DNA of 64,000 bases from Escherichia coli O127:H6 str. E2348/69 (lineage in GTDB: Bacteria > Pseudomonadota > Gammaproteobacteria > Enterobacterales > Enterobacteriaceae). The stretch lies in assembly GCF_000026545.1 (NCBI RefSeq), contig NC_011601.1, one strand, 5' to 3'. Under the pieces are notes generated by a model. The model made no database searches. It was not told the DNA's origin and saw only the letters and a list, made by a program, of their open reading frames with translations. This document shows, one piece after another, positions 1-38,372 of this stretch. Made by a program: the position numbers and the translations under genes. The stretch's first letter is position 1; each line of letters begins with the position of its first letter.

Positions 1-183
1 TGCGGTGATCCAGCCCTGGCCCTGACCTTTCAGGAAGCGCGGCACGCCTTCTTCAATAGAGGCGGTACACAACACTTTGGTATCGCCAAATTCGACCAGC
101 ACCGAGCCTTCTGCATGTTTTGTATAGTTACGAGTCAGGGTAACGGGACGCACCTGATTATTGCTACGGCCTGCTGGACGCAT
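1..183 (-). CDS. rph: RNase PH, N-terminal part (gene continues past window start)
   Basis: Reverse-strand translation from the ATG at 183-181 reads [61 protein letters not shown], recognisable as E. coli RNase PH. It is absent from the ORF track because it runs off the window. It is divergent from yicC as in K-12. Confidence 0.9.
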
Positions 184-309
184 ATTGAAATCTCCGGCTT
201 GAAACAAATGTGGCTGCGCATTATACGGACTTCCGGCGGTTATTCCTATCCTGACAAGGCATCGATGGCTATAATCCTTCCACCTCTCCTTTTATAAACA
301 GGAACGTCT

Positions 310-1173
310 ATGATCCGCAGTATGACCGCCTACGCCCGGCGTGAAATCAAGGGTGAATGGGGGAGCGCAACCTGGGAAATGCGCTCGGTAAACCAGCGTT
401 ATCTGGAAACTTACTTTCGTCTGCCGGAGCAGTTCCGTAGCCTTGAACCTGTCGTTCGTGAGCGTATTCGTTCTCGCCTGACGCGCGGTAAAGTGGAATG
501 TACCCTGCGCTATGAGCCCGATGTCAGCGCGCAAGGTGAGCTGATCCTCAACGAAAAACTGGCTAAACAGCTGGTAACTGCCGCGAACTGGGTAAAAATG
601 CAGAGTGACGAAGGGGAAATCAACCCGGTTGATATTCTCCGCTGGCCAGGCGTGATGGCGGCCCAGGAACAGGATCTCGACGCGATTGCCGCTGAAATTC
701 TCGCGGCGCTGGATGGTACGCTGGACGACTTTATCATCGCGCGCGAAACCGAAGGTCAGGCGCTGAAAGCATTGATCGAGCAGCGTCTGGAAGGCGTGAC
801 CGCCGAAGTGGTCAAAGTCCGCGCCCACATGCCGGAAATCCTGCAATGGCAGCGTGAGCGTCTGGTGGCTAAGCTGGAAGACGCCCAGGTGCAACTGGAA
901 AACAACCGTCTGGAGCAGGAGTTGGTTCTGCTGGCACAACGAATTGACGTTGCCGAAGAGTTGGACCGCCTCGAAGCGCATGTTAAAGAGACCTACAACA
1001 TTCTGAAGAAAAAAGAAGCCGTTGGTCGTCGTCTGGACTTTATGATGCAGGAGTTCAACCGCGAGTCGAACACCCTGGCCTCGAAGTCTATCAATGCCGA
1101 AGTGACTAACTCCGCCATTGAGCTGAAAGTGTTGATCGAGCAGATGCGCGAGCAGATTCAGAATATTGAATGA
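310..1173 (+). CDS. yicC: YicC-family stress-induced protein, 287 aa
   Basis: The 287-aa ORF MIRSMTAYARREIKGEWGSATWEMRSVNQRYLE... matches remembered E. coli YicC. It has the K-12 position next to rph. Confidence 0.9.
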   Translation: MIRSMTAYARREIKGEWGSATWEMRSVNQRYLETYFRLPEQFRSLEPVVRERIRSRLTRGKVECTLRYEPDVSAQGELILNEKLAKQLVTAANWVKMQSDEGEINPVDILRWPGVMAAQEQDLDAIAAEILAALDGTLDDFIIARETEGQALKALIEQRLEGVTAEVVKVRAHMPEILQWQRERLVAKLEDAQVQLENNRLEQELVLLAQRIDVAEELDRLEAHVKETYNILKKKEAVGRRLDFMMQEFNRESNTLASKSINAEVTNSAIELKVLIEQMREQIQNIE

Positions 1174-1212
1174 TTTTGCATGCTGTCGCATGAAATTGCA
1201 AAAATCCATCAT

Positions 1213-1237
1213 AGCCCGCATTTTGCGGGCTTTTTTA
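1213..1237 (+). terminator. Rho-independent terminator of yicC
   Basis: The hairpin GCCCGC-ATTTT-GCGGGC is followed by a T6 run, 40 nt after the yicC stop. Confidence 0.75.
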
Positions 1238-1281
1238 TTTTCATACTGTCGCATATGATTGCATAGCATCGCGCAAAACAT

Positions 1282-1300
1282 TTGTACCCAAGACTGTACC
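1282..1300. repeat. attL core, direct repeat TTGTACCCAAGACTGTACC
   Basis: It is identical to 12406-12424. An inverted copy of its left half (TGGGTACAAA, 1325-1334) lies just before the int start. Confidence 0.85.
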
Positions 1301-1360
1301 TTTAATAATTTATCCAATTCATTTTGGGTACAAAATGATAGTCAATATTCAGGTGAAACT

Positions 1361-2620
1361 ATGGCAAAGCTGACAGATATCCAAATCAAGTCATGGATTA
1401 AGGCAGGAGAACGCTTCGAGGGGCGCTCTGACGGCAACGGGCTATACCTTCGCTATCGAGTGGGGGATAAAGTGCCTGTATGGCGTTTTCGATATCAGTT
1501 CGCTGGGAAATCACGGGTAATGCTTATTGGATCTTATAGCGAAATATCCCTTTCCAAAGCACGGGAAATAGCCAAGGAATTATCCGCACGTGTAGCCCTG
1601 GGCTTCGATGTCGCCGGGGAAAAGAAAGCGCGAAAAGCGGCTGCTATAGAAAAGATGGAGCGGGAGAAAAACGCGCTTCGCGTGTCAGAGCTAGCAACCG
1701 AGTATTTCGAACGGCAGATTTTGGGACGCTGGAAACATCCCGATCTTCTGCGCCGGAGAATCGATAAGGATATCAACCCACATATTGGCAACATGAAGAT
1801 AGAGGACGTAAAACCCCGTCATATTGATGCGATGCTACAGAGCGTTGTTGATCGTGGCGCTCCAACCGTAGCTAATGACGTTCTGCGCTGGACTAAACGC
1901 ATATTCGATTATGCTATCAAGCGTCATGCACTGGAATTAAACCCAGCTGGAGCATTTGATCTGTCAGACGCTGGCGGGCAGGAAAGTAGCCGTATGCGCT
2001 GGCTGACCCGTGAAGAACTTATACGTTTTTTCCAAGCTATGCGCACTGCAAAAGGATTCAGCCGCGAGAACGAGCTGACCATGAAGCTAATCCTCTGCCT
2101 GTGTTGTCGCAAAATGGAGCTGTGCGGTGCTCAGTGGGATGAATTCGACCTTGATGAAGCAGTGTGGCATCTACCAGCAGAACGCGTTAAAAACGGCGAC
2201 GCTATTGATATACCACTACCTCCACCTGCGGTTGGTTGGTTGAGAGAGCTTCGCACTATCGCGGGCAGTGGGAGTAAATGGGTTCTCCCCGCGCGGAAGA
2301 TGCAACACCGCATGATTCCCCACATTCAGGAAAGCACACTCCCAGTGGCGCTGGCAAAAGTACGCCGCGAAATGCCAGAAGTACCAAACTTCACAATTCA
2401 CGATTTCAGGCGTACCGCCCGCACCCATTTAGCGGCGTTGGGTGTCGATCCCGTAGTCGCAGAACGTTGCCTGAATCACCGCATTAAAGGCGTTGAGGGT
2501 ATCTACAACCGCCACCAGTACTTTGAAGAACGACGGGCAGCCCTGGAACTGTGGGCGGGGCTTCTGGTTTCGCTTGAACGAGGGGAAAACTACAATGTTA
2601 TTCCTTTATCTAAAATATAA
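1361..2620 (+). CDS. int: Tyrosine recombinase, P4-type integrase (N-terminal DUF4102-like arm-binding domain plus catalytic domain), 419 aa
   Basis: MAKLTDIQIKSWIKAGERFEGRSDGNGLYLRYRVGDKVPVWRFRYQFAGKSRVMLIGSY is the typical P4/CP4-57 integrase N-terminus. The C-terminal part has HDFRRTARTHL and a terminal ...GIYNRH... tyrosine region. An AGGTGA SD lies 5 nt upstream of the ATG at 1361. Confidence 0.9.
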   Translation: MAKLTDIQIKSWIKAGERFEGRSDGNGLYLRYRVGDKVPVWRFRYQFAGKSRVMLIGSYSEISLSKAREIAKELSARVALGFDVAGEKKARKAAAIEKMEREKNALRVSELATEYFERQILGRWKHPDLLRRRIDKDINPHIGNMKIEDVKPRHIDAMLQSVVDRGAPTVANDVLRWTKRIFDYAIKRHALELNPAGAFDLSDAGGQESSRMRWLTREELIRFFQAMRTAKGFSRENELTMKLILCLCCRKMELCGAQWDEFDLDEAVWHLPAERVKNGDAIDIPLPPPAVGWLRELRTIAGSGSKWVLPARKMQHRMIPHIQESTLPVALAKVRREMPEVPNFTIHDFRRTARTHLAALGVDPVVAERCLNHRIKGVEGIYNRHQYFEERRAALELWAGLLVSLERGENYNVIPLSKI

Positions 2621-2636
2621 AAGTTTTGTTTGAAGG

Positions 2637-2739
2637 TATTCACCCTATTCACCTTTTTAATTAACTTCATGATTTTAAATAATAAAAAAGGGTGAATACT
2701 TACAGTAAAACTAATCACCTTAGTATTCACCTGTTCACC
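2637..2739. repeat. Iteron cluster (ori-like): six copies of T(A/G)TTCACC around an AT-rich spacer
   Basis: TATTCACC is at 2637, 2646 and 2724. TGTTCACC is at 2732. Degenerate TAATCACC is at 2712. Inverted GGTGAATA is at 2691. The 2654-2690 spacer is almost pure A/T. TGTTCACC is the type I iteron I recall being bound by P4 alpha protein at ori and crr. Confidence 0.65.
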
Positions 2740-2939
2740 TTCTAAAGCTGCTGTGGCTGCTCCCCTTGCCCGAAAACACGCCAGCCACCAGCGTTAAAAA
2801 AAACTACAAAAATCATCATCGTACAGATCTGTACGATGACGCCAGCACTCACCCTACAAAACAACCTAACTTATTGATTTCAAAAGTAGAGAAAATCTGC
2901 TTTATGCCACTAGCTCGCACCCGTCCCCAAAAAGAAAAA

Positions 2940-2966
2940 GCCCGCGCTGGAGACGCACGGGCTTTT
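2940..2966. terminator. Bidirectional hairpin terminator between the int/iteron region and the cargo operon
   Basis: GCCCGCG-N9-CACGGGC is flanked by A-rich sequence upstream and TTTT downstream, so a T-run follows the hairpin on both strands. Confidence 0.5.
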
Positions 2967-3123
2967 GGGTACCGATAACCATGTTTGGAATCAACTCATT
3001 GAGTTCTGACCTCAATTTGCATGTTATCACAAGAAAAACACATTGTAATAATTGCAACAACGAATATCATCATTGCATATAATGAAACATAAATATCCGA
3101 TAGAACATACTGAGGTCTGACCG

Positions 3124-3675
3124 ATGCAAGATATTACAAACATCGCAGTGACTGGCGAAGATGGCGTGGTGACGTATGCCGACGGCAGTAAAGAGGAGTT
3201 CCAGTGCAGCGGAACCGTTGCGACCATCATTGCAAGTCTTGCAACGACACTCGAGAAAGAACGCAAAATGCGCATCGCCACCGGCGACCGCCTGCGCCGC
3301 ATGTACACCCGCGACAGTGATATGATTTCCCGCGGTTTGAATGGCACGTCTGCTACTTCCACGGCACCGACAGCAATGAATGCTGAGTTCATGCGTCTGG
3401 TACGTGCCGTAGCGCCGAAATACGATTCAGCACTGCCCGACGCCGACCCGCGCATCGTTGCGCTCGATGTGCTGCGCTACGCCCCTGCTGAGGCGTTCAG
3501 CGCCGTACACCCTACCCCAATGTCAGAAATCCAGCTGGATCAGGCTATCGATATACTCGAGCAGGTTGGCGACTACATGAAAGCAAACAATATCGCTCCG
3601 AAAATAATTTCTACAGGAGACGCAATCCGCAGCATCAATGCTGACAACGCCACCTTCTGGGGCAAAAAACACTAA
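3124..3675 (+). CDS. Hypothetical protein, 183 aa (cargo operon 1, gene 1)
   Basis: A GAGG SD lies about 9 nt upstream of the ATG. I recognise no family. The C-terminal motif INADNATFW is shared with the next ORF. Confidence 0.65.
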   Translation: MQDITNIAVTGEDGVVTYADGSKEEFQCSGTVATIIASLATTLEKERKMRIATGDRLRRMYTRDSDMISRGLNGTSATSTAPTAMNAEFMRLVRAVAPKYDSALPDADPRIVALDVLRYAPAEAFSAVHPTPMSEIQLDQAIDILEQVGDYMKANNIAPKIISTGDAIRSINADNATFWGKKH

Positions 3676-3688
3676 AGAGATATGAAGC

Positions 3689-3877
3689 ATGTCTATCTAT
3701 GACCCGAAATTAGCCGCAGGCAACCCACAGCGCGCCCACCGCCCAATGCTGACCCGTCAGGATCTTGAAACGGCAAAGGCACGCAATAACTTCGATCGCC
3801 AGAGTCGCAACCTGCAGCAACTCAACGAATCAAATGCACGGTTCTGGAGTGAACAGAATGAGAAAGCCAAACGTTAA
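3689..3877 (+). CDS. Hypothetical small protein, 62 aa (cargo operon 1, gene 2)
   Basis: It starts 13 nt after gene 1. It carries LNESNARFW, similar to the gene 1 C-terminus. Its 3' end overlaps the gene 3 start by 20 nt. Confidence 0.5.
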   Translation: MSIYDPKLAAGNPQRAHRPMLTRQDLETAKARNNFDRQSRNLQQLNESNARFWSEQNEKAKR

Positions 3878-4034
3878 GCCGGTCCTGCTGTCCGCCGAGC
3901 AGATGCAGGCCATACGCAACATTCAGGAACGTGAACGCCAGCGCTCCAATCTCGGCGTCGCTCCCACCGTTCACCAGATTGCCCGCGGCCTCATGGCTAA
4001 GGCTCTGGCCTCACTGGCAAGCGAGGGCGCGTAA
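3858..4034 (+). CDS. Small putative ribbon-helix-helix-like protein, 58 aa (cargo operon 1, gene 3)
   Basis: The ATG at 3858 has a GGAG SD 8 nt upstream, within the longer track ORF 3765-4034. MRKPNVKPVLLSAEQMQAIRNIQERERQR...TVHQIARGLMAKALASL has a strand-helix-helix pattern. The stop overlaps the next start as TAATG. Confidence 0.5.
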   Translation: MRKPNVKPVLLSAEQMQAIRNIQERERQRSNLGVAPTVHQIARGLMAKALASLASEGA

Positions 4035-4765
4035 TGGGCGCCATTCACCAGATATATGAGCAGGAAATGTTCTATAACTGGATAGGCGATGGTAAACGAT
4101 GTGTAGCATTCCACGAAGCGGGCCATGCAGTAGCCGCATGGCTTATTCGCTTAGATATGCAGGTTATCGCCATTATGGATGAATCCGGCTACGTTGCTGG
4201 CGAACATGTACATGAAGCCCAGTGTTTGGGCGTTGTTAAACACGGCATAATCCACAGCCACGATCTCAGGCGTTTGCGGGAGAGTAAATCTGGTGTAGTT
4301 GGGCACGATGGCAAAGTTATCCCTTTCATACGCTACTACGCGGAAGGTATAAAGCGCGATGCAACAAAGGCCGCTTTTGTAGCCCTCGCTGGACCAGTAA
4401 GCGAAGCCATTTACGAAAATAACGAAATTTTCAATATAAAGTATTCACTCCCTCACCGCTATGACATGGCTAACGTAAATGACATGCTCGATTTAATATG
4501 TGCCACGGATAAGCGAATTAACAGGAAGTTAATGCTTTCTAAACTTGTTGAAAAGACCAAATTCCTCATGACTCAATACTGGCCGGAAGTAGGAAAAATA
4601 GCGCATTTGCTTGAGCGGGATAACATTGTTAATGGCCGCGATGTTAGCTCGCTAATCGGCCTCAACGTCATTGACCGGGCAACGCCATTTTTGGTATCTG
4701 ACTTGAGCAGTACATTTGCTCATCTCCCGTACTCGTCCCTGCCTCCGAATGAATTAGCAACTTGA
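4034..4765 (+). CDS. Stand-alone FtsH-like (peptidase M41-type) zinc metalloprotease domain protein, 243 aa, with no AAA+ module and no TM segment
   Basis: FHEAGHAVAAW (HEAGH at nt 4112-4126) matches the FtsH zinc site. Later segments (VALAGPVSEAIY, MANVNDMLDLI, KIAHLLERDNIVNGRDVSSLI) parallel the FtsH protease domain by eye. There is no Walker A/B. Confidence 0.7.
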   Translation: MGAIHQIYEQEMFYNWIGDGKRCVAFHEAGHAVAAWLIRLDMQVIAIMDESGYVAGEHVHEAQCLGVVKHGIIHSHDLRRLRESKSGVVGHDGKVIPFIRYYAEGIKRDATKAAFVALAGPVSEAIYENNEIFNIKYSLPHRYDMANVNDMLDLICATDKRINRKLMLSKLVEKTKFLMTQYWPEVGKIAHLLERDNIVNGRDVSSLIGLNVIDRATPFLVSDLSSTFAHLPYSSLPPNELAT

Positions 4766-4777
4766 AGACAGTAAAGT

Positions 4778-4802
4778 AGCCATGCATTTAACACGCATGG
4801 CT
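4778..4802. terminator. Bidirectional hairpin between the two convergent cargo operons
   Basis: A perfect 8-bp stem AGCCATGC / GCATGGCT with a 9-nt loop lies in the 47-nt gap between the stops at 4765 and 4813. Confidence 0.55.
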
Positions 4803-4812
4803 ATGTGAACAT

Positions 4813-6036
4813 TTAAGAATTAGAGCGCTTAGGCGATCGCGTAAATTGCACTAAAGCCCCTTTATGATCGTTAGCCTGCACATCACGATGCTCAACCAAC
4901 ATAGATTTTAATTTTGCCAGATGCACAACAGCAGCCTTCTTGCCAGTCAGGTACCCCTCGGGCAAACCAGCAATCATTTCCACATCAATAGCAGATAAAC
5001 CTGCGAATGCAGCAAGCCGTTCAACTGAAATGATTCCAGACGATGCCAGCAATTCAATAGTACGTTTCAACAAACGTGGTTTTTCAGGCTCACGATAATC
5101 ATCTCCCGGCTCTGATTTCGCTCCCCAACGTGCTGAACGACGCTTATAAAGATTTTGTTTCTCTTCTTCCGTAATAATATGCAGCACATGTAAACGCATG
5201 ATACTTGCCGCAACGGAAATACCATAGCGTTGTTTAATTAAAAGCAAGCTATCTAATGTTACCGGGGTCCTAATTTCTTCGGCAAATGTCTCAGCAGGAA
5301 GCAGCAGTGCTCCCGCAAATTTATGAGCCTGACTTTCCTTCAGCTTATAACGTTCGGCTTCGAGTTCGTTGCCAACATAGCGGTGAAGGATCAGATGACC
5401 AATTTCGTGAGCAAGGTCAAATCTGCTACGAAAAGCATTACCTTTATCTGAAGAGAGGAGAACAAAAGGAACACCTAAAGTCTCACTCCAGGCAGAAAGC
5501 CCTTCAATCTGCGCAACGCCTGTTTCTTCTCTAATAACGATAATACCATTACTCTCTGCGGCTAAAGCAAGATCCGGTATTTCCTTTGTACCAAGATTCC
5601 AAAGAGCACGGCACTCATTAGCAGCGTCTTCAATATCTGCATCACTAATTTCATCAATGTTTGTAAAGCTACGACGCGGTAGTTTTAGCTCCGGCAGATC
5701 TACAAACTCAGTCAGCTTAGTAACTAACTCATTAGCCCAATGGATTCGAGTTTCTAACATTGCTCGTGCAGCTACATGAGCTGATGCATTGCTTCTGAAC
5801 AGAGGCTTTGACATCCCCTTCAACAGAGGGCGCGTAAACCATTCAGGTGTAACATTTACGACAGTGGCCAGACGTTCTAAAGCCTCAGACTCTGGAGCCT
5901 GTTGACCGGAACGCCATTTGCTAATGGTTGCTGGTGATACACCCACCATAGTAGCTAATTGAGTTTGTGATAGCCGCCGGGCGGCTAGTACCTGTGCTAA
6001 CCTGCCCGGTTGAAATTCGGCGACGCCTCGGCTCAT
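4813..6036 (-). CDS. XRE-family HTH fused to an ImmA/IrrE-type (M78, COG2856) zinc peptidase domain with a C-terminal extension, 407 aa
   Basis: The N-terminus LAQVLAARRLSQTQLATMVGVSPATISKWRSGQQAP is a classic XRE HTH. HEIGHLILH is at aa 210-218 (HEIGH at nt 5395-5409). The start overlaps the upstream gene stop as ATGA, with a GAGGAAG SD. Confidence 0.8.
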   Translation of the reverse strand: MSRGVAEFQPGRLAQVLAARRLSQTQLATMVGVSPATISKWRSGQQAPESEALERLATVVNVTPEWFTRPLLKGMSKPLFRSNASAHVAARAMLETRIHWANELVTKLTEFVDLPELKLPRRSFTNIDEISDADIEDAANECRALWNLGTKEIPDLALAAESNGIIVIREETGVAQIEGLSAWSETLGVPFVLLSSDKGNAFRSRFDLAHEIGHLILHRYVGNELEAERYKLKESQAHKFAGALLLPAETFAEEIRTPVTLDSLLLIKQRYGISVAASIMRLHVLHIITEEEKQNLYKRRSARWGAKSEPGDDYREPEKPRLLKRTIELLASSGIISVERLAAFAGLSAIDVEMIAGLPEGYLTGKKAAVVHLAKLKSMLVEHRDVQANDHKGALVQFTRSPKRSNS

Positions 6037-6680
6037 ACATTATCTTCCTCGGTTCCATCTTTTCTGATAATGCCCCTTTTGAGCCCAGGGAATGCATTAT
6101 CTTCTTGGGACGGAACTACATCATATCGGGTTAAAAAAAGTTCAAGTGGCTCATGAAAAACCCAGCGCTTCCCATCAGAACTTGGTACAACAAGCTCTAT
6201 AGACATCGGAGCTTCAGGCTGAATCTGCAACGAACCGGAAAAACGGCATACTACGAACAGTGTAGCTTTTGGCACATCAGAACCATCGGAGAATAAATCC
6301 GGTTGCACCATTTTTTCCACAAACACGTTCTCAGAAATGAGTTCTTGCTTACGTTTGCTACGGAATAATCTCTTCCACTGGTTATCATTGTAGCTTTCAC
6401 GAACAATCGTGAATATACCACTATGGCCTTCTACAATACGGTTACCACGCAGCTTTCCAGGATTACAACCGTTGGCCTCAAACACCTCATAAATAGTTTC
6501 ATTCAGGTTTAAATGACGATCATAACCAAGCGCGGTCGATCTGTGATCTAGCTTCTTCTTTTGAGCATAATCGTAAGAACGCTTTGATGCCGCGTAAATC
6601 GCGTCAGAAAGGGCCATGAAGAGTTGTTTTGAAACATTCTGAACGATGAGATCTGCCACTTTGGATTTTTTCACGACCAT
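6033..6680 (-). CDS. Hypothetical protein, 215 aa, first gene of cargo operon 2
   Basis: It is an intact ORF with an AGGA SD. It is translationally coupled (ATGA) to the XRE-ImmA gene. I recognise no family. Confidence 0.65.
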   Translation of the reverse strand: MVVKKSKVADLIVQNVSKQLFMALSDAIYAASKRSYDYAQKKKLDHRSTALGYDRHLNLNETIYEVFEANGCNPGKLRGNRIVEGHSGIFTIVRESYNDNQWKRLFRSKRKQELISENVFVEKMVQPDLFSDGSDVPKATLFVVCRFSGSLQIQPEAPMSIELVVPSSDGKRWVFHEPLELFLTRYDVVPSQEDNAFPGLKRGIIRKDGTEEDNV

Positions 6681-6683
6681 TTC

Positions 6684-6702
6684 CTATCACTGTCACTGAT
6701 AG
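6684..6702. promoter_or_regulatory. Operator-like inverted repeat CTATCA-N7-TGATAG at the start of cargo operon 2
   Basis: CTATCACTGTCACTGATAG lies 4 nt upstream of the 6680 start codon, overlaps the SD, and contains an internal tandem TCACTG. Confidence 0.45.
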
Positions 6703-7209
6703 CCGTGATTTTATATCAGTATTTTTTCGTGTGTCCATAACGCAATCAATTATTTTTTCCTTTGTCAGCAAGAATTATATAAAAAGCACTATCATGACAG
6801 GATTTGGGCCACTAACCTTTCACAGACTCTTGAAGTCCTAGAAAAAAGCAATGGCACAAGGTGTCCTTGCCGGGAGAAAAATCATCTGGCTACCAGCAAC
6901 CTTATAGATTCCAGATCAACGTAATATCAAAGTAAAACGTCCATTTCCGGTACCATATTTGGTCATTACGACGGGGGAAACTTATACCCACTGCTGCCCC
7001 ATCGTCAGCGCCGACAGGGACCTATGCCGCAAGGTATAAGGCAAAATTGGCATTTTCGCTATTCCCCCTGCCCGTATTTTTTGGCTTACTGGAATTTCTC
7101 TATCTAACACAATGAACTTGAGGCTATTCCGACAGGGAGAAAAGCGATCTACGCCTGACCGCCTGCCTCAGCAATCATCCAGGCAAGTACGTGTGTAAGG
7201 CTAACGCGA

Positions 7210-7890
7210 ATGAGTGATTTTTATTCCCCTCTACCAAGCTATGATCTTGTCCGGGCAGCGGAGATGCTGACTGATAAGGGGGCAAATTGTACCGGTAACG
7301 ATTTATTGGAACTATGGAACCAAGGCGTTATCGAGTTGTGTTTTTCTCTGCCGGACTACATTGCTTGTGAAGATGTTAATTTTCCCGGGCATGGTCACAG
7401 CATTTTGTTATCCGTGGATCCGATTAGCTTCAACCTTTTCTGGCTAAATGTTGATTACCCACCGAACTTAAATGCTAACTTTTCTGTGAAAGAATATGGC
7501 TCAGATAGTGAATTCCATGAGCAGTCCCTATGGATACCAACAGAACCGCACTACAACACTCACCATGATAACGGGGAAGGGCTTTGCGAAGCGTTAAGGA
7601 ATACTTATGGCCGGGAAAATTTACGAATACCAGGTGTCGAATTGCAAAAGGTTTGGCGCTTTTTGATCGGTCAGCCTTATGAAAAAAAGCCAACGCCTGA
7701 GCGTATCACCGCTAAGCAATGCCGCTTTATCGTCGCATTACTCAGATCGTATAACCTGACTGACGATGATTTTAAGGGGAGCATTAGGGACCTGAGAATT
7801 AAGATATCTAACCGGATCCCTTCAATCGGTGATCCTGAAATCGATGATAATACCCTTACTGACTGGCTGAAGAAGGGAGGGGTTCGGTAG
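7210..7890 (+). CDS. Hypothetical protein, 226 aa, first gene of the rightward alpA operon
   Basis: It is an intact ORF after a 529-bp intergenic region. I recognise no family. Confidence 0.6.
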   Translation: MSDFYSPLPSYDLVRAAEMLTDKGANCTGNDLLELWNQGVIELCFSLPDYIACEDVNFPGHGHSILLSVDPISFNLFWLNVDYPPNLNANFSVKEYGSDSEFHEQSLWIPTEPHYNTHHDNGEGLCEALRNTYGRENLRIPGVELQKVWRFLIGQPYEKKPTPERITAKQCRFIVALLRSYNLTDDDFKGSIRDLRIKISNRIPSIGDPEIDDNTLTDWLKKGGVR

Positions 7891-7891
7891 C

Positions 7892-7928
7892 TGAGTTTTC
7901 ATAACTCCGATGAGTTTTCAATAACTCC
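7892..7928 (+). repeat. Tandem direct repeat TGAGTTTTCA(A)TAACTCC x2
   Basis: The copies are at 7892-7908 and 7911-7928 and differ by one extra A. They lie immediately after the 7890 stop. Confidence 0.7.
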
Positions 7929-7957
7929 CCCACCCGTAACCACCTACCCCGTAGCCT

Positions 7958-7993
7958 TGCGATTACCTTCTCACTCAATAGCAGGTAATCGCA
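7958..7993 (+). promoter_or_regulatory. Hairpin able to sequester the alpA SD and start codon
   Basis: There is a perfect 10-bp inverted repeat, TGCGATTACC (7958-7967) and GGTAATCGCA (7984-7993). The right arm contains the AGGTAA SD and the A of the ATG. Confidence 0.45.
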
Positions 7994-8205
7994 TGAAATC
8001 GCAAACTTTCACCTTTCCTACCAATGGCAACGCACGAGCCAAACAAGTGGCGCACTATCTTGGAGTGCATATCAGCACCGTATGGCGCTATGCAAAACGT
8101 CCTGATTTTCCAAAACCCCACCAGTTAACCGACGGCGTGACCGTCTTTGACGCCGCAGCTATTCGCCAATGGAACAAGCAAAAAACCGGGGGTGAGAATG
8201 CTTAA
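7993..8205 (+). CDS. alpA: AlpA-family (MerR-like HTH) phage/island regulatory protein, 70 aa
   Basis: RAKQVAHYLGVHISTVWRYAKRPDFPKPHQLTDGVTVFDAAAIRQWNKQK matches the AlpA/Vis-type pattern. Confidence 0.8.
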   Translation: MKSQTFTFPTNGNARAKQVAHYLGVHISTVWRYAKRPDFPKPHQLTDGVTVFDAAAIRQWNKQKTGGENA

Positions 8206-8259
8206 CGCGACCGTGAGCACACCCTGCACGACAGCCGTTCGATCTCCATTGTTGGCGGG

Positions 8260-8454
8260 TCAGGCTTTCGGCTCAATACCCAGCCGCTGGAGTTCTTTGC
8301 GCCCCAAGGTTTTCATCCAATTAGCTAAACTCATACCTGCATCTCGTGCGGCGGCCTCGAATTGCTCTTTCAATTCTGGGGCGATCCTCACTTGGAAAGC
8401 TGGTGCCTTTCCCCTGCCTTTGGGCTGTTTATCACGCTGTATTACTGTTGACAT
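8260..8454 (-). CDS. Ribbon-helix-helix (Arc/CopG-type) DNA-binding protein, 64 aa
   Basis: MSTVIQRDKQPKGRGKAPAFQVRIAPELKEQFEAAARDAGMSLANWMKTLGRKEL is a typical RHH signature. The start is chosen at the internal Met of track ORF 8260-8547. Confidence 0.65.
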   Translation of the reverse strand: MSTVIQRDKQPKGRGKAPAFQVRIAPELKEQFEAAARDAGMSLANWMKTLGRKELQRLGIEPKA

Positions 8455-8458
8455 GTAT

Positions 8459-8512
8459 GTACCTATTAAACTAAGATTCAAATCAATAGGTACGCACCTT
8501 AACATGTTAAGG
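8459..8512. promoter_or_regulatory. Divergent operator region: a 9-bp inverted repeat plus a 16-bp perfect palindrome
   Basis: GTACCTATT (8459-8467) pairs with AATAGGTAC (8485-8493). CCTTAACATGTTAAGG is at 8497-8512. Both lie between the RHH gene start (8454) and the rightward operon start (8589). Confidence 0.5.
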
Positions 8513-8588
8513 TCAGAAAAGACAACGCCCCGTAGTGCTCGCAACACATACGGGGCGTCTAACCAACAACGTTACGGAGACTAACGCT

Positions 8589-8789
8589 ATGGCTAAGCCG
8601 CAGTGTACCCAAACTCACCCCAAATATCAGTATCGTTTTATGGCGCTCGATCGCGCTGACCGCCAGGCAAAACCCTGCAAAATCATTGTTGAGGCCACCA
8701 GCGAGCATGAAGCACGTAAGGTGTTGGCACCTCACTACATCCTGTCACTGTCCGCCGTTTTGCCAGTTCAGGAGGTGAGCCATGTTTAA
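8589..8789 (+). CDS. Small protein, 66 aa, possibly Icd-like (host cell division inhibitor-like)
   Basis: The ATG has a GGAGA SD 8 nt upstream. MAKPQCTQTHPKYQYRFMALDRADRQAKPCKIIVEATSEHEARKVL resembles my memory of Icd-like proteins found upstream of primases in P4-like islands. This is unverified. Confidence 0.45.
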   Translation: MAKPQCTQTHPKYQYRFMALDRADRQAKPCKIIVEATSEHEARKVLAPHYILSLSAVLPVQEVSHV

Positions 8790-8976
8790 TGTCATTGTCA
8801 CGGTCACCTATCACTTTTCGGGAACGATCCGTCGTTTTGCTATTCCGGAACGTTTCAATAATCGTGAGCTCGCAGAGAAAGCGGCGCAGCAGTTAACCCA
8901 TACCAGCTATCTGGATGATGGAGTGAGCAGAATTGTGACCCACGCGGCGGAAGTAGTGGAGGTGCGCCATGTATGA
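8782..8976 (+). CDS. Hypothetical small protein, 64 aa
   Basis: Its start overlaps the previous stop by 8 nt (translational coupling). I recognise no family. Confidence 0.5.
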   Translation: MFNVIVTVTYHFSGTIRRFAIPERFNNRELAEKAAQQLTHTSYLDDGVSRIVTHAAEVVEVRHV

Positions 8977-9157
8977 CGCCTACCTGAACCCAAAGGACGC
9001 ACTCCGTCCGATCGCCGTTGCACTCGAGGCTGCGCAGTTTATCGCGCTTGACCCGGAGAATACCGATTTAGCCCATGAGCTGATCGCCTGGGCACTTGAA
9101 ACAGCCGCGCGTGCCTCAGCTGCGCAACGTAACACCCCGGAGGTGGACAATGCTTAA
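8969..9157 (+). CDS. Hypothetical small protein, 62 aa
   Basis: Its start overlaps the previous stop by 8 nt. I recognise no family. Confidence 0.5.
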   Translation: MYDAYLNPKDALRPIAVALEAAQFIALDPENTDLAHELIAWALETAARASAAQRNTPEVDNA

Positions 9158-9458
9158 TCTCAATACATGGAATCTTTTCACGCTGCCGCTGAACGGTGGC
9201 GCAGCTGAGACAGCGCCGGACGATCTGCGTCTGCTGGCCGCTGTGGGGGACGAGGCTCGCAACAACTACCTGCGCGGTGTAAGCGCCATCGGCAATCTGA
9301 TCTTCTGGGCATGTGATAACCCCAACTACACCGACCATCAAGCTGACCTGCCAGCGCTGGGCGCATTCCTGAAACATACCGCTGATATGGCGCGCGCTGC
9401 CGAATTCATGGCAGGACATCTGGACTCACTGGCTGACGGCAAAGAGGGAGGCAAATAA
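9150..9458 (+). CDS. Hypothetical protein, 102 aa
   Basis: The internal ATG at 9150 has a GGAGG SD and overlaps the previous stop (ATGCTTAA). I recognise no family. Confidence 0.5.
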   Translation: MLNLNTWNLFTLPLNGGAAETAPDDLRLLAAVGDEARNNYLRGVSAIGNLIFWACDNPNYTDHQADLPALGAFLKHTADMARAAEFMAGHLDSLADGKEGGK

Positions 9459-9679
9459 TGCCACGCAAACATCGCTCATCAAGCAACCTGATCAAATTAA
9501 TGGAACGCCAGAAAGGTATAGGGCGCGACGATATCCAGATCGCAGATAATCGCCCTACATTCATGCCGTACGAGCCGAACGGAACCTACGCTACAAACCG
9601 CCATACCCGCCGTATGCTACGCAAGCTCCACGGCATCCAGGCAAAAAGAATGTGTGATCTGAAAGGAGGTCAGAAATGA
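9458..9679 (+). CDS. Hypothetical basic small protein, 73 aa
   Basis: It overlaps the previous gene as TAATG, and its stop overlaps the primase start as ATGA. Confidence 0.5.
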   Translation: MPRKHRSSSNLIKLMERQKGIGRDDIQIADNRPTFMPYEPNGTYATNRHTRRMLRKLHGIQAKRMCDLKGGQK

Positions 9680-12090
9680 GTGGATTCGATCACCTGATGG
9701 AGCAGGGGCAGAAACGCACCCCTGCTCGTTTTACTGCAAATAGCTTTTCTGACCTGTGCAACGCTATTCTATCGCATCGTGTGCAAATTTCCATCACACA
9801 GGAAATGACGGATGAAGAACGGCGCAAAGAAAAGCAGAAACTGTACTGGTTCTCGGCAACTACCCAGCAGGACGGGCAGCGACGTAAACCCGAAAACATG
9901 GCACCGTGTGCTTTCGGTATGCTGGACATTGACGGCAGCACTCCCGGTGCAATCACAGCACTTGTACAGGTGTTCCGGCGATACTCAATGCTGGTGTACC
10001 AGACGGCCAGCTATACGACGGATGAACCTCGTCTGCGTATTGTGTGCGAGCTTTCCCGAGCGGTTGAATCTGACTACCGCCGAGCGACAGGCGAATCCAT
10101 AGAAACTTTGTTGATGCAGGAGGCTGGATTCTCATTCGCCAGCCTGGCGGATAAGAAAGCACGCTGGGAGAACGGCAGCGATTATGTTGTCTTTGACCGC
10201 AATGTATACGGCGCTCAAAGCTATTGCTACTGTCCACACACTGGAGCGAAAGCCCAGAATTACGCGGGCGCGGTAATCGACGTAGGGGCGTTACCGGAAC
10301 CCGCCCAGCCACCAGCGAAGGCGGCCAAAAGCAAGGCAAAGAAACAGCGCCAGCGTGACGCCGCGGCGGTAATAGATGCTGATTTTGACGATCTGAGCGC
10401 CGGACCGGATAACTTCCTTATCGCCGACCTGCGCAGCGCACTCTGGTTTCCCTCCATGCTGCAAAAGGCATGGGACAATGGGGCGTGGATTGAGCAGGGC
10501 TACCGCCTTGCATCTCTCAAAGGCACCGATTTTGAGGACGACGCGCGGCAACTGTGGGTCGAGTGGTCATTGACCGCAGCGGATGGCTGGCCTGATGAAG
10601 AACTTGATGAAGTCGCGGCACAACGCTGGAATGGTCTCGCCCCTGACAAAACCAGCTATAAAGCTATTTTTACTGATGCTCAGGCGCAGGGGTGGAATAA
10701 TCCGGGCAAATGGCGAGCAAAGGCCGCGTACATTGAGAAAATGGCCCCCAGCACACGCGGTGAACTGCTGGCGCAATATTACGGCAACGTATGCCTGAAA
10801 GCTGATGGCAACATGGTTTATCACTATACCGGGCAGGTGTGGGAGCACATCGCCGATGCCGAGTTGCGCCGCCAGCTTTCGCAGATTTTCAAAGATAACG
10901 GGGTCCCCTTTACACCGTACGAGGTTAAAAGCGCGATTGAGGCTATGGGAATGCTTCTGCCTTTAATGGGAGAAACTCCTCGTAACCTGATTGGCTTTGC
11001 CAACGGCGTTTATGATCTCGAGGCGCAGCGATTCCGCCCCCACTGCCCAGACGATTGGCTGACCAGCCATAACGGCGTTGAATACACGCAGCCGGTTAAA
11101 GGCGAAACCCTGAAAAACAATGCCCCAAACTTCTGGCGCTGGCTGCATCATTCCGCAGGGGGCGACTTCGACAAAATGGAGAGAATCAAAGCCGCTCTGT
11201 ATATGGTGCTGGCAAACCGCTACGACTGGCAACTGTTCATCGAGGTTACCGGTGCTGGTGGCAGTGGTAAAAGCGTGTTCACGGGTATTGCACGTATGCT
11301 GACGGGCGAACTACACGCCACCAGCGGCACAATGGAGGACATGGACACCGCGCGCGAACGCGCATCTTTTGTCGGCAAAAGCCTGATCACCCTACCCGAC
11401 CAAGCAACATATACGGGTTCCGGGCCGGGTATCAAGGCTATAACGGGCGGCGACGTGGTAAGGATCGACCCAAAGCACGAAAAGCCATTCCATACGGTTA
11501 TTCGCGCCGTTGTCATCGCAACAAACAACGAACCTATGCGTTTCACCGAACGACAAGGCGGGATATCGCGGCGCCGGGTTATTTTCCCGTTTAACCATGA
11601 AGTGCCGGAGGCGGAACGTGATCCCCATCTGCTCGATAAAATTAAAGCCGAACTGCCGGTAATCGTCCGTGGTCTGCTGATTGACTTCGAACAGCCAGGC
11701 AAAGCCAAATCGCTACTTATCGCGCAGCGTGATTCAGCGGAAGCGCTGCAGGTGAAGAACGATAACGACCCGATGTATGGCTTTTGCTCTTACCTGCTAG
11801 GTTTGCCGAATCCCGAGGGCATGTACATGGGCGATGGGCGCATGGCGCGAGAGCCACGCATCTACCTCTATCATGCTTATCTGGCCTATCTGGAAGCCTA
11901 CGGTTATCAGAGAACCCCCACCCTACCGAAGTTCAGCGGAGATTTACGGGACACGCTCAAAGCCTTTGGTATTACTCTGGACAGTAAAAAGAGTAAAAAG
12001 GGCAAAAGATATAACGTCAATTTGTCTGACAGGGCACAAGAATGGCTGGGAGAAGACGAACTCTCAGCTGTGCCCGACACATTGCAGTAA
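9676..12090 (+). CDS. P4 alpha-like replication protein: N-terminal primase-like domain, PriCT-2-like region, D5_N/SF3 helicase P-loop, 804 aa
   Basis: Walker A GAGGSGKS is at nt 11251-11274. The surrounding ...ANRYDWQLFIEVTGAGGSGKSVF...IKAITGGDVVRIDPKHEKPF...ATNNEPMRF...GGISRRRVIFPF matches the phage/plasmid primase P4-family C-terminal domain. A candidate DxD (LDIDG) is at nt 9925-9933. Confidence 0.85.
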   Translation: MSGFDHLMEQGQKRTPARFTANSFSDLCNAILSHRVQISITQEMTDEERRKEKQKLYWFSATTQQDGQRRKPENMAPCAFGMLDIDGSTPGAITALVQVFRRYSMLVYQTASYTTDEPRLRIVCELSRAVESDYRRATGESIETLLMQEAGFSFASLADKKARWENGSDYVVFDRNVYGAQSYCYCPHTGAKAQNYAGAVIDVGALPEPAQPPAKAAKSKAKKQRQRDAAAVIDADFDDLSAGPDNFLIADLRSALWFPSMLQKAWDNGAWIEQGYRLASLKGTDFEDDARQLWVEWSLTAADGWPDEELDEVAAQRWNGLAPDKTSYKAIFTDAQAQGWNNPGKWRAKAAYIEKMAPSTRGELLAQYYGNVCLKADGNMVYHYTGQVWEHIADAELRRQLSQIFKDNGVPFTPYEVKSAIEAMGMLLPLMGETPRNLIGFANGVYDLEAQRFRPHCPDDWLTSHNGVEYTQPVKGETLKNNAPNFWRWLHHSAGGDFDKMERIKAALYMVLANRYDWQLFIEVTGAGGSGKSVFTGIARMLTGELHATSGTMEDMDTARERASFVGKSLITLPDQATYTGSGPGIKAITGGDVVRIDPKHEKPFHTVIRAVVIATNNEPMRFTERQGGISRRRVIFPFNHEVPEAERDPHLLDKIKAELPVIVRGLLIDFEQPGKAKSLLIAQRDSAEALQVKNDNDPMYGFCSYLLGLPNPEGMYMGDGRMAREPRIYLYHAYLAYLEAYGYQRTPTLPKFSGDLRDTLKAFGITLDSKKSKKGKRYNVNLSDRAQEWLGEDELSAVPDTLQ

Positions 12091-12109
12091 CTTGTAAAAA
12101 ATCACCAAG

Positions 12110-12131
12110 AACCCCGTAAATCGGGGTTTTT
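12110..12131 (+). terminator. Rho-independent terminator after the primase gene
   Basis: AACCCCG-TAAAT-CGGGGTT is followed by a T-run, 20 nt after the stop. Confidence 0.75.
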
Positions 12132-12152
12132 GTCTATTTATTAGTCTGAAAG

Positions 12153-12254
12153 GGTGAACAGGTGCGCATACCTTAACAAAGCTGTTCACTCTAATAATTT
12201 TCTTTAATATCAGTACACTACCCGCAATAAGTGAACAGATGGACGGGGTGAACA
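12153..12254. repeat. Second iteron cluster (crr-like): four copies of GGTGAACA / TGTTCAC
   Basis: GGTGAACA is at 12153-12160 and 12247-12254. TGTTCACT is at 12183-12190. AGTGAACA is at 12230-12237. An AT-rich spacer lies between them. It is the same octamer family as 2637-2739. Confidence 0.6.
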
Positions 12255-12405
12255 CTTCACACCTATAGCGCGAAATATTTTAATATTTGCAGTTGAATTG
12301 CAATCCTTGAAAACAGAAACGCGTAGCAAAACGTAGAGTGCTGAAAAAATTTTGTTGGGGAGCAGTTCAAACTGCATGAGCAATTTTCAAGCACTCCTCT
12401 TTGTC

Positions 12406-12424
12406 TTGTACCCAAGACTGTACC
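12406..12424. repeat. attR core, direct repeat TTGTACCCAAGACTGTACC
   Basis: It is identical to 1282-1300. Confidence 0.85.
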
Positions 12425-12653
12425 CAATAGAAAAAATAGAAAATAAAAACTCAGCAATAGCAGCGATTGGTTACACTACTCAACATTCAGATTCAACTCG
12501 TAACGCCAATTCTTACTTTTCAGCCTTCACAAATGCCGCCCACTCAAACAGAGCGGCATTTTTCTTCCCCGCAACTTCAATTCTGTTTTGCGTGCCTGCT
12601 CCAGATTTTGCGATGTTTTTTTGCCCAGCGCAGTGAGAACGTGAGATACTCAC

Positions 12654-12673
12654 AACTGTATATAAACACAGTT
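12654..12673 (+). promoter_or_regulatory. LexA (SOS) box of dinD
   Basis: AACTGTATATAAACACAGTT fits CTGT-N8-ACAG and lies 44 nt upstream of the dinD start. Confidence 0.8.
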
Positions 12674-12716
12674 GTAGACTTACTTTCCTTGCAATCGATA
12701 TCACATGGAGTGGGCA

Positions 12717-13541
12717 ATGAACGAACATCATCAACCTTTTGAAGAGATAAAGCTGATTAATGCAAACGGAGCAGAACAATGGTCAGCAAGACAACTTGGG
12801 AAACTACTGGGTTATTCAGAGTATCGTCACTTTATACCTGTATTAACGCGCGCCAAAGAAGCTTGTCTGAATAGTGGTCACACAATTGATGACCATTTCG
12901 AGGAGATCCTCGATATGATCAAAATTGGCTCAAATGCCAAAAGAGCATTAAAAGACATCGTACTCTCCCGCTATGCCTGTTACCTGGTAGTACAAAACGG
13001 CGACCCTGCGAAACCGGTTATTGCGGCAGGGCAAACTTATTTTGCTATCCAGACCCGACGGCAGGAGCTGGCTGACGATGAAGCTTTCAGGCAACTTCGT
13101 GAAGACGAAAAGCGTCTTTTTCTGAGAAATGAGTTGAAAGAACATAACAAACAATTAGTTGAGGCAGCGCAGCAAGCTGGGGTAGCGACAGCTATCGATT
13201 TCGCCATATTTCAGAATCATGGTTACCGGGGGCTGTATGGTGGATTAGATCAGAAAGCCATCCATCAGCGGAAGGGGCTGAAAAAGAGTCAGAAGATCCT
13301 GGATCATATGGGTTCAACAGAACTGGCGGCTAATCTCTTTCGAGCTACCCAAACAGAAGAAAAACTCAAGCGGGATGGCGTGAATTCAAAACAGCAAGCT
13401 AACACCACACACTTTGACGTGGGTCGCAAGGTGAGGCAAACCATTCAGGAACTTGGCGGAACCATGCCTGAGGAGTTGCCGACCCCGCAGGTCAACATCA
13501 AGCAGTTGGAAAACAGTGTAAAAATTACAGAGAAGAAATAG
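12717..13541 (+). CDS. dinD: DNA-damage-inducible protein D, 274 aa
   Basis: MNEHHQPFEEIKLINANGAEQWSARQLGKLLGYSEYRHF... matches remembered K-12 DinD. The start is taken at the second Met of the track ORF. Confidence 0.9.
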   Translation: MNEHHQPFEEIKLINANGAEQWSARQLGKLLGYSEYRHFIPVLTRAKEACLNSGHTIDDHFEEILDMIKIGSNAKRALKDIVLSRYACYLVVQNGDPAKPVIAAGQTYFAIQTRRQELADDEAFRQLREDEKRLFLRNELKEHNKQLVEAAQQAGVATAIDFAIFQNHGYRGLYGGLDQKAIHQRKGLKKSQKILDHMGSTELAANLFRATQTEEKLKRDGVNSKQQANTTHFDVGRKVRQTIQELGGTMPEELPTPQVNIKQLENSVKITEKK

Positions 13542-13832
13542 CAGAAACTAAAAACTCTTTTTGTTGATTGAGATACCCGATGCGTAAGCCAAAGTCCAGG
13601 TGCGGTGAACACAATGGCTAAACATTGCACCTTTCTTTTCCACCCCTCAATTTTAACCTATTTTTTCTTATGCATTCTCTCAGACAAGAAGTCAGAAGAA
13701 TGCATCTACGCTACAGAAAATAGCGATTTCACATAACTACAAGTTATCAATTTCCTCTCACCTTAAAAAATCTCAATCGTGACAATACGCACAAATCGCT
13801 ACCCTGCCAGACAGATTTTTAGGGAGAGAACC

Positions 13833-16224
<2,392 letters not shown>

Positions 16225-38277: not shown

Positions 38278-38372
38278 GGAAGATCGTCGTCTCCGGTGAG
38301 GCGGCTGGACTTCAAATCCAGTTGGGGCCGCCAGCGGTCCCGGGCAGGTTCGACTCCTGTGATCTTCCGCCA
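38278..38372 (+). tRNA. selC: tRNA-Sec (anticodon UCA), 95 nt
   Basis: GGAAGATCGTCGTCTCCGGTGAGGCGGCTGGACTTCAAATCCAGTTGGGGCCGCCAGCGGTCCCGGGCAGGTTCGACTCCTGTGATCTTCCGCCA has a long variable arm, a TCA anticodon and a CCA end. Confidence 0.97.

Follow-up and report, generated by a model that had tools for sequence, protein, structure and literature searches.

Background

Satellites of the Gram-negative phage-inducible chromosomal island (PICI) type share the gene order int–alpA–pri (PMC6092414, PMC10111431). Their cycle is activated by AlpA, and the region upstream of alpA is induced by the helper phage via an unidentified factor (PMC6092414; PMC11773190). In phage P4, immunity is exerted by a processed RNA, CI, which pairs with the sites seqA and seqC and terminates transcription (PMC4825925, PMC10111431). 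A further RNA, the int-alpA RNA (Rfam RF02996), originates in a comparative-genomics survey (Weinberg et al. 2017, PMC5737381), the main text of which is silent on the motif; Rfam files the family as sRNA, and our literature search found no functional study of it. Here we analyse a stretch of 64,000 nucleotides (below, the window) of Escherichia coli O127:H6 str. E2348/69, and in it the 529-bp gap (6681-7209) between two divergent genes of a PICI-like island. The flagged region matches the E2348/69 chromosome at 100% identity and is found in only 7 of 5426 complete E. coli genomes. A preliminary description of the window had taken the gap for an unusually long control region, in which a repeated 10-mer and a C-rich element might form an RNA-based immunity or attenuation device. 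On the whole, our analysis suggests instead that the gap is a composite of three parts, namely the promoter and operator of a RosmerTA defence pair, a lineage-specific spacer, and a leader carrying an int-alpA RNA, and that this leader would be a riboregulator, the P3 loop of which chooses between two downstream sites, site 1 and site 2. We put the joint probability of this composition and this mechanism at about 0.6.

Compared with the described family, the RNA in the window shares the three-way junction of stems P1, P2 and P3 and the conserved CUA..CCGAC..GG..GAAAAGCG..CGCCUG bases, and it likewise lies upstream of alpA in an integrase-bearing island. It differs in the P2 loop (GACA instead of GACG), in one P3 mismatch, in a linker that is not U-rich and in its low score. 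In addition, the integrase gene (int) does not abut the motif in the window, as it is located 4.5 kb upstream and split off by defence cargo. The Rfam model ends upstream of both site 2 and the Shine-Dalgarno sequence (SD) of the next gene.

The int-alpA RNA in the window and in its relatives

The Rfam model matches 7117-7184 on the plus strand over model positions 1-71, with 39.4 bits against a gathering score of 35.8. Among ten relatives (loci are labelled L below), seven score 50.9-66.1 bits, while L053, L002 and L013 are at 39.1-42.2. The order int, motif at 7117 and alpA is kept in the window, all three on the plus strand. The junction occupies 7117..7172 (+). Its P1 stem (7117-7124 / 7165-7172) forms 7 of 8 pairs; P2 (7127-7130 / 7135-7138, UUCC-GACA-GGGA with the loop GACA) forms all 4, one of them U-G; the junction strand GAAAA follows at 7139-7143; and P3 (7144-7147 / 7159-7162) forms 3 of 4 pairs with one A·C mismatch, enclosing the loop 7148-7158. 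The hexamer CACAAT at 7108..7113 (+), 3 nt upstream of P1, is -10-like and a candidate promoter element of the leader. In the relatives, similar hexamers are over-represented at 3-10 nt from P1 on its upstream side (44 hexamers across 89 distinct loci), and the scan of the plus strand from 6500 to 8300 gives no sigma-70 promoter and no intrinsic terminator above its threshold.

The relatives comprise 57 loci from viral contigs and about 50 from bacterial genomes, mainly Gamma- and Betaproteobacteria. About 70 of 120 matches in bacterial genomes are excluded as false, being either a coding stretch of Roseateles/Pelomonas, which by translation is probably 2-oxoglutarate dehydrogenase, or random GC-rich matches. 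In isolated phage genomes, including that of phage P4, blastn gives no credible match to the motif. Across these about 100 related satellites the three-way junction is present with strong covariation. Among 72 distinct cores, 7 of the 8 P1 pairs change on both sides and 94% of the cells are paired; the covariation score is 0.523 as compared with 0.119 in shuffles (reached by 0 of 500), and falls to 0.04-0.08 with slid partners. The G-U pairs in P1 show that the plus strand is the folding strand. P2 and the GAAAA junction are near-invariant; the P3 loop, of which 50 distinct versions occur, is hypervariable.

A block so strongly conserved in sequence might also act at the level of DNA, as an operator for AlpA or another protein or as a recombination site, the more so as AlpA activates its own promoter region (PMC6092414). 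This is very unlikely, since in P1 double substitutions, and G-U pairs that work on one strand only, preserve the pairing, and since the covariation between loop and sites reported below has no DNA-binding rationale.

The P3 loop and its two target sites

The P3 loop matches two segments downstream of the junction. Site 1 lies 6-11 nt after P1', the second strand of P1, and is Watson-Crick complementary to the loop: complementarity of at least 5 nt is found in 44 of 50 loop types, as compared with 14% of mismatched loop/leader pairs, and the duplex averages 5.84 nt over the 50 distinct loops and 3.57 nt in the mismatched pairs. Site 2 is on the SD of the first gene and stops 5-10 nt short of the start codon; it reaches at least 5 nt in 33 of the 50 loop types, again against 14%, with a mean duplex of 4.94 nt against 3.53 nt. 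For both sites alike, the observed totals are reached by none of 20000 permutations, and the result also holds for 27 loops that differ mutually at 4 or more positions. Specificity switches are seen among close relatives. For example, in a single lineage the loop is CAUCAC with site 1 GUGAUG and site 2 GAUGA (L013), CUUCAC with GUGAAG and GAAGA (L026), or CGUCAC with GUGACG and GACGG (L027), showing a covariation of loop, site 1 and site 2 at single-nucleotide level. Between site 1 and the start codon there is one more hairpin, designated P4 (not to be confused with the phage), the loop of which presents both the SD and site 2; this hairpin folds better than shuffles, with a mean z of -2.1 and z < -1 in 63 of 86 leaders.

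In the window, the putative antisense segment of the P3 loop is GCCUG (7153..7157). It is complementary to site 1, CAGGC (7180..7184), which starts 8 nt after P1' and would be the 5-bp pseudoknot partner, and to site 2, AGGC (7198-7201), with which only 4 bp can form. The P4 hairpin (CGUGU / ACGCG, 7190-7194 / 7204-7208) holds the SD, AAGG (7197-7200), in its loop, and the ATG of the first gene, ORF1, follows at 7210; all these features are on the plus strand.

The right end of the gap, 7117-7209 (+), would be the 5' leader of an ORF1-alpA transcription unit, containing the int-alpA RNA. In the mechanism that we propose, the P3 loop pairs with either site but never with both. Pairing with site 1 would make a pseudoknot, in which the loop is occupied and the SD is free, while a loop-loop contact with site 2 would hide the SD and turn ORF1 off, and perhaps alpA too through polarity. 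The invariant P2 and junction would be the obvious place for a trans factor, the binding of which would decide between the two pairings. Since the Gram-negative PICI cycle is activated by AlpA, the leader would then gate PICI induction. We infer that a control RNA resembling the logic of phage P4 immunity sits in the leader. To this extent the immunity or attenuation device supposed in the preliminary description finds its counterpart in a structured RNA with downstream complementarity, made of other sequences than the elements it had named.

Several observations weigh against this mechanism. First, since parts of P2, the junction and P3 were preset in the pattern used for retrieval, their invariance is partly by construction; the independent Rfam consensus has the same conserved bases. 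Second, some lineages (L005-type, L008, L044) lack site 2, showing that occlusion of the SD is not a universal mechanism. Third, 35 of 89 loci have the integrase stop codon upstream of P1, mostly by 7-8 nt, and many relatives have no more than about 30 nt between the end of int and P1, 7-8 nt being the commonest distance; the RNA may thus form the 3' end of int transcripts, either in addition or instead. Fourth, in the window itself the three-way junction can be formed, though the minimum-free-energy fold does not recover it (z = +0.97), while the fold of the closest relative, the metagenomic locus L058, is the consensus. The window copy differs from L058 at five pairing or conserved positions, each change weakening the structure, and it may thus be partly decayed. 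With a site 1 of 5 bp, a site 2 of 4 bp and a mismatch in P3, the window RNA may be a weak or decaying copy.

Some of these points, namely the position of the int stop codon, the lineages lacking site 2 and a near-invariant P2/junction that suggests binding to a conserved machine, could also be accounted for by a purely structural leader or an int 3'-end element, for which the match between loop and site 2 would be incidental. Such a pseudoknotted fold would stabilise the mRNA, terminate or insulate int transcription, or recruit RNA polymerase or the ribosome, like a put-like antiterminator or a standby site. We consider this improbable: the site-2 match is loop-specific in the permutations and covaries nucleotide for nucleotide, and in the window int is far away, with the adjacent upstream genes on the opposite strand.

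A different possibility is that the RNA acts in trans. The three-way junction would be set free in the form of a stable small RNA, through termination at a U-rich linker or by processing, and its free P3 loop would repress, via site 2 and site 1, ORF1-alpA transcripts of the same specificity, keeping the satellite quiescent and excluding like satellites, as P4 CI and P1/P7 C4 do. A hypervariable loop with two hypervariable targets in a near-invariant frame, together with switches of specificity, is the typical pattern of antisense immunity or incompatibility. The linker 3' of P1' is indeed U-rich and G-poor in the relatives' leaders, the filing of the family as sRNA agrees with a free RNA, and phage P4 itself uses a processed RNA pairing with two repeated sites (PMC4825925, PMC10111431). 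On the other side, the U-run usually begins several nt past the stem, so that there is no canonical terminator, and none is found in the window; some satellites already have a separate C4/isrK immunity RNA; and counts of further P3-loop targets elsewhere in the islands are at chance level. A trans-acting immunity RNA is doubtful in our view, and the switching in cis between the two sites is preferred. As a separate observation, the integrase gene contains a 9-nt stretch, TCAGGCGTA (2406-2414), with perfect complementarity to the P3 loop of the window; the expected number of such matches in the island is about 0.2, and the relatives examined show no apparent equivalent.

Comparison with the P4 CI and C4 RNAs

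The int-alpA RNA and the P4 CI / P1 C4 RNAs have much in common. Both are cis-encoded structured RNAs heading an early operon of a satellite or phage, in both one loop faces two repeated sites on the same transcript (in the window CAGGC with 5 bp and AGGC with 4 bp), and in both the specificity varies among relatives. In P4 and P1, moreover, one of the target sites sits where translation of the next gene starts. The differences concern arrangement and descent. The int-alpA RNA is upstream of ORF1 and alpA, while the P4-type RNA is downstream of the alpA homologue, inside the Bro/eta gene (PMC10111431); both targets of the int-alpA RNA are downstream of it, while those of P4/C4 flank the RNA. 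A P4-type CI/C4/isrK RNA was also considered for the island of the window, and the covariance-model search is negative: C4 (RF01695) and isrK (RF01394) have no match in window positions 1-14000 at E<=1, nor in 6600-7300 and 8150-8850 at E<=10. The same search detects C4 and isrK with 72-80 bits in L012 and L120, where C4 and isrK (L012, 4345-4572) or C4 (L120, 561-648) are found about 3 kb downstream of the int-alpA RNA. The coexistence of these RNAs shows that they are separate devices or layers. In addition, L005 has a Proteo-phage-1 RNA (2653-2735) alongside its int-alpA RNA. Judged from these searches, the int-alpA RNA is not a homologue of P4 CI/C4, and the similarity is one of logic only.

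One may go a step further and regard the int-alpA RNA as the switch still sought in Gram-negative PICI-type satellites, analogous to P4 CI and P1 C4 without being homologous to them, and with the P3 loop as the determinant of immunity or specificity. The loop would kiss the hairpin that displays the SD and so hold the translation of ORF1-alpA off in cis, possibly in trans; site 1 would be a built-in decoy; and a helper-phage or host factor on the invariant P2/junction would flip the RNA "on", leading to induction. We offer this extension tentatively and regard it as rather unlikely.

The gap upstream of the RNA

The preliminary description was right that the gap between the divergent starts measures 529 bp and has no convincing open reading frame (ORF), since only ORFs of at most 42 aa are present and none of them is kept in L058. 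It was also right that the 10-mer CCGACAGGGA occurs twice, at 7011-7020 and 7129-7138. The other elements are real but were partly misplaced. Of the two copies of GCTATTCC, the second is at 7123-7130 as described, and the first at 7058-7065 rather than 7068-7075; the C-rich TCCCCCTGCCCG is at 7063-7074 instead of 7073-7084, overlapping the first GCTATTCC copy; and the imperfect hairpin has arms at 6968-6976 / 6997-7005 with 8 of 9 pairs, as against a described span of 6969-7009. The complementarity of 6-7 bp claimed between the C-rich element and the 10-mers shrinks to 5 bp.

These elements had been combined in a P4-like attenuation model within 6969-7138, in which the two CCGACAGGGA copies are paired by TCCCCCTGCCCG, or the reverse. 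The sequences do exist and CCCTG can pair with CAGGG, yet the model is extremely improbable on several grounds besides the short pairing. Of 2000 dinucleotide-preserving shuffles of the gap, 9.8% contain an exact direct repeat of at least 10 nt, and a shuffle is expected to hold about 2.3 repeated 8-mers. The fold stability is not unusual against shuffles, with z = -0.75 for 6960-7085 and -0.15 for 7005-7085, and a range of -0.15 to -1.26 over the folded segments that hold the hairpin and the C-rich element. In L058, where the whole gap is kept at about 88-91% identity, the upstream 10-mer is CCGGCAAGGA, with 2 substitutions unmatched in the other copy, and the downstream one is CCGACGGGGA; as the copies differ separately, they do not track each other and the repeat is not maintained. 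In the other E. coli islands at this chromosomal site (yicC-dinD) the gap measures just 206 bp and the sequence upstream of 7118 is unrelated. There blastn finds relatives for 7118-7206 only, at about 78% identity and with an abrupt start at 7118, and the homology extends from 7118 through to the start codon; the whole segment that holds the upstream elements is absent from these sister islands. The second CCGACAGGGA copy, proposed as a target site, is explained as the 4-bp P2 hairpin of the int-alpA RNA. The repeats are ordinary and mostly due to chance, and the upstream repeat, the C-rich element and the hairpin, being neither conserved nor statistically unusual, are on present sequence comparisons without demonstrable function. 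The idea that the upstream 10-mer marks another, degenerate copy of the int-alpA RNA was considered and rejected: cmscan of 6600-7300 at E<=10 gives the 7117 copy only, and the flanks are unrelated.

The middle part of the gap is the lineage-specific spacer (6738..7107, about 380 bp, with no strand assigned), present only in the 7 E. coli genomes and in L058. Within it lie the upstream 10-mer, the first GCTATTCC copy, the C-rich element and the hairpin. It has no Rfam match at E<=10 in the scan of 6600-7300 other than the int-alpA RNA at 7117, no ORF conserved between the window and L058, and no significant fold. Two origins were examined and discarded. A small protein gene is rejected, for the short ORFs differ between the window and L058; a remnant of the integrase 3' end or of another gene is rejected too, as tblastn with all ORFs of the loci gives short spurious matches only.

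The left end of the gap belongs to the minus-strand genes rmrT (6033-6680; PADLOC RmrT, 8.1e-16) and rmrA (4813-6036; PADLOC RmrA, 3.5e-125), the latter with an XRE helix-turn-helix (HTH) and an M78 peptidase domain (Pfam HTH_3 and Peptidase_M78). The two genes are adjacent and overlap by 4 nt. They correspond to RosmerTA in that a toxin-like gene precedes one for an XRE-HTH/M78-peptidase protein, and in their strong matches in PADLOC, and this anti-phage defence pair (4813..6680) is cargo inserted between int and the int-alpA RNA. The sister islands L002 and L003 hold a different HTH/M78 pair in the same slot. A consensus scan detects a -35/-10-like pair, TGGACA-18-TAAAAT, at 6737..6708 on the minus strand, with TAAAAT at 6713-6708. 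Between TAAAAT and the start codon, in the 5' untranslated region of rmrT, there is an operator-like repeat, CTATCACTGTCACTGATAG (6684-6702). The TAAAAT hexamer and the repeat are identical in L058, and the -35-like hexamer differs there by one base. The left end of the gap (about 6684-6737, minus strand) is thus likely the promoter and operator of the RosmerTA operon, and CTATCACTGTCACTGATAG may be a candidate autoregulatory site of the XRE-type RmrA. RosmerTA bears on the gap only as a left neighbour, the promoter of which takes up part of it.

Genes downstream of the leader

The first gene after the leader, ORF1 (7210-7890, +, 226 aa), has no match in Pfam, PHROGs or PADLOC. Its slot is highly variable: the ORF1 of 69 relatives include HNH, DUF6387, Bro-N and many unknowns. 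Concerning its start, an ATG at 7112 opens a 28-codon ORF across the RNA motif (7112-7198), and in L058 (6093-6959, minus strand) a 2-nt indel puts the corresponding ATG in frame with ORF1, giving an ORF of 288 aa; such an in-frame upstream ATG is a likely source of start-codon mis-annotation. The alpA gene follows at 7993-8205 (+), a RefSeq coding sequence with a Pfam Phage_AlpA match of 7.7e-07. In the relatives where a homologue of the window AlpA is detected, it is 0.85-1.1 kb downstream of the motif.

The preliminary description had spoken of an alpA-primase operon. A small gene of 64 aa (8260-8454) intervenes on the minus strand, convergent with alpA and with a weak, sub-threshold HicB / ribbon-helix-helix match. 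It is followed by an icd-like gene, several small genes and the D5/P4-type primase (9676-12090). Because of this intervening gene, ORF1-alpA and icd-primase may be separate transcription units, and the latter may have a control region of its own at 8455-8588. Just upstream of the icd-like gene there is a GC-rich hairpin, ACGCCCCGT...ACGGGGCGT (8526-8559); it matches no Rfam family, the best hit being the R1162 antisense RNA with 18.7 bits against a gathering score of 55.

The island

The island is about 11 kb long and, according to the RefSeq annotation and domain searches, inserted between yicC and dinD, where other E. coli genomes hold variant islands. It begins with the tyrosine integrase gene (1361-2620, +, RefSeq). 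Four small unknown genes stand between int and the minus-strand RosmerTA pair, and the divergent gap, ORF1, alpA and the primase region follow. The genes int, alpA and the D5/P4-type primase share one orientation, and there are no virion genes. The Pfam matches behind this layout are Phage_AlpA, D5_N, Pox_D5 and DUF5906, with the integrase taken from RefSeq. The PICI layout (int, alpA and pri within 10-20 kb at a specific chromosomal site) is found here, and by gene layout we assign the island to the Gram-negative PICI type. In size, int, alpA and primase it resembles the described PICIs EcCICFT073 and EcCIMP1. It differs from them in the extra variable ORF1 between leader and alpA and in RosmerTA between int and leader. 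A region of CFT073 guessed to be EcCICFT073 was dropped from the comparison, as it proved to be a lambdoid prophage.

Besides, four to five (G/C)TATTCACC sites in both orientations are clustered at 2636-2739, directly after the integrase stop codon, and one related site is at 12247-12255, near the right end of the island. There are 25 matches in the window while 11.3 are expected. The cluster may represent candidate arm-type integrase or AlpA/Xis binding sites. The gene of tRNA-Sec (selC) is located at 38278-38372 (+), about 31 kb downstream of the int-alpA RNA; selC is a well-known island-integration site in enteropathogenic E. coli.

Implications

The unusual length of this control region would be due to the scar of a cargo insertion and to a known RNA, not to a new repeat-based device. 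The RNA belongs to a catalogued, uncharacterised Rfam family, to which the triple covariation of loop and sites gives a testable mechanism. A hypervariable loop that covaries with both a decoy site and the ribosome-binding site of the first gene leads to a concrete riboregulator model. With a variable gene slot on one side and a slot for defence cargo on the other, the RNA also helps to set module boundaries in the annotation of satellites. At the head of the alpA unit, no non-coding element other than the Rfam motif is conserved. As the route from the helper phage to AlpA, the master activator of PICIs, is still unexplained (PMC6092414, PMC11773190), this leader would be a plausible point of its control.

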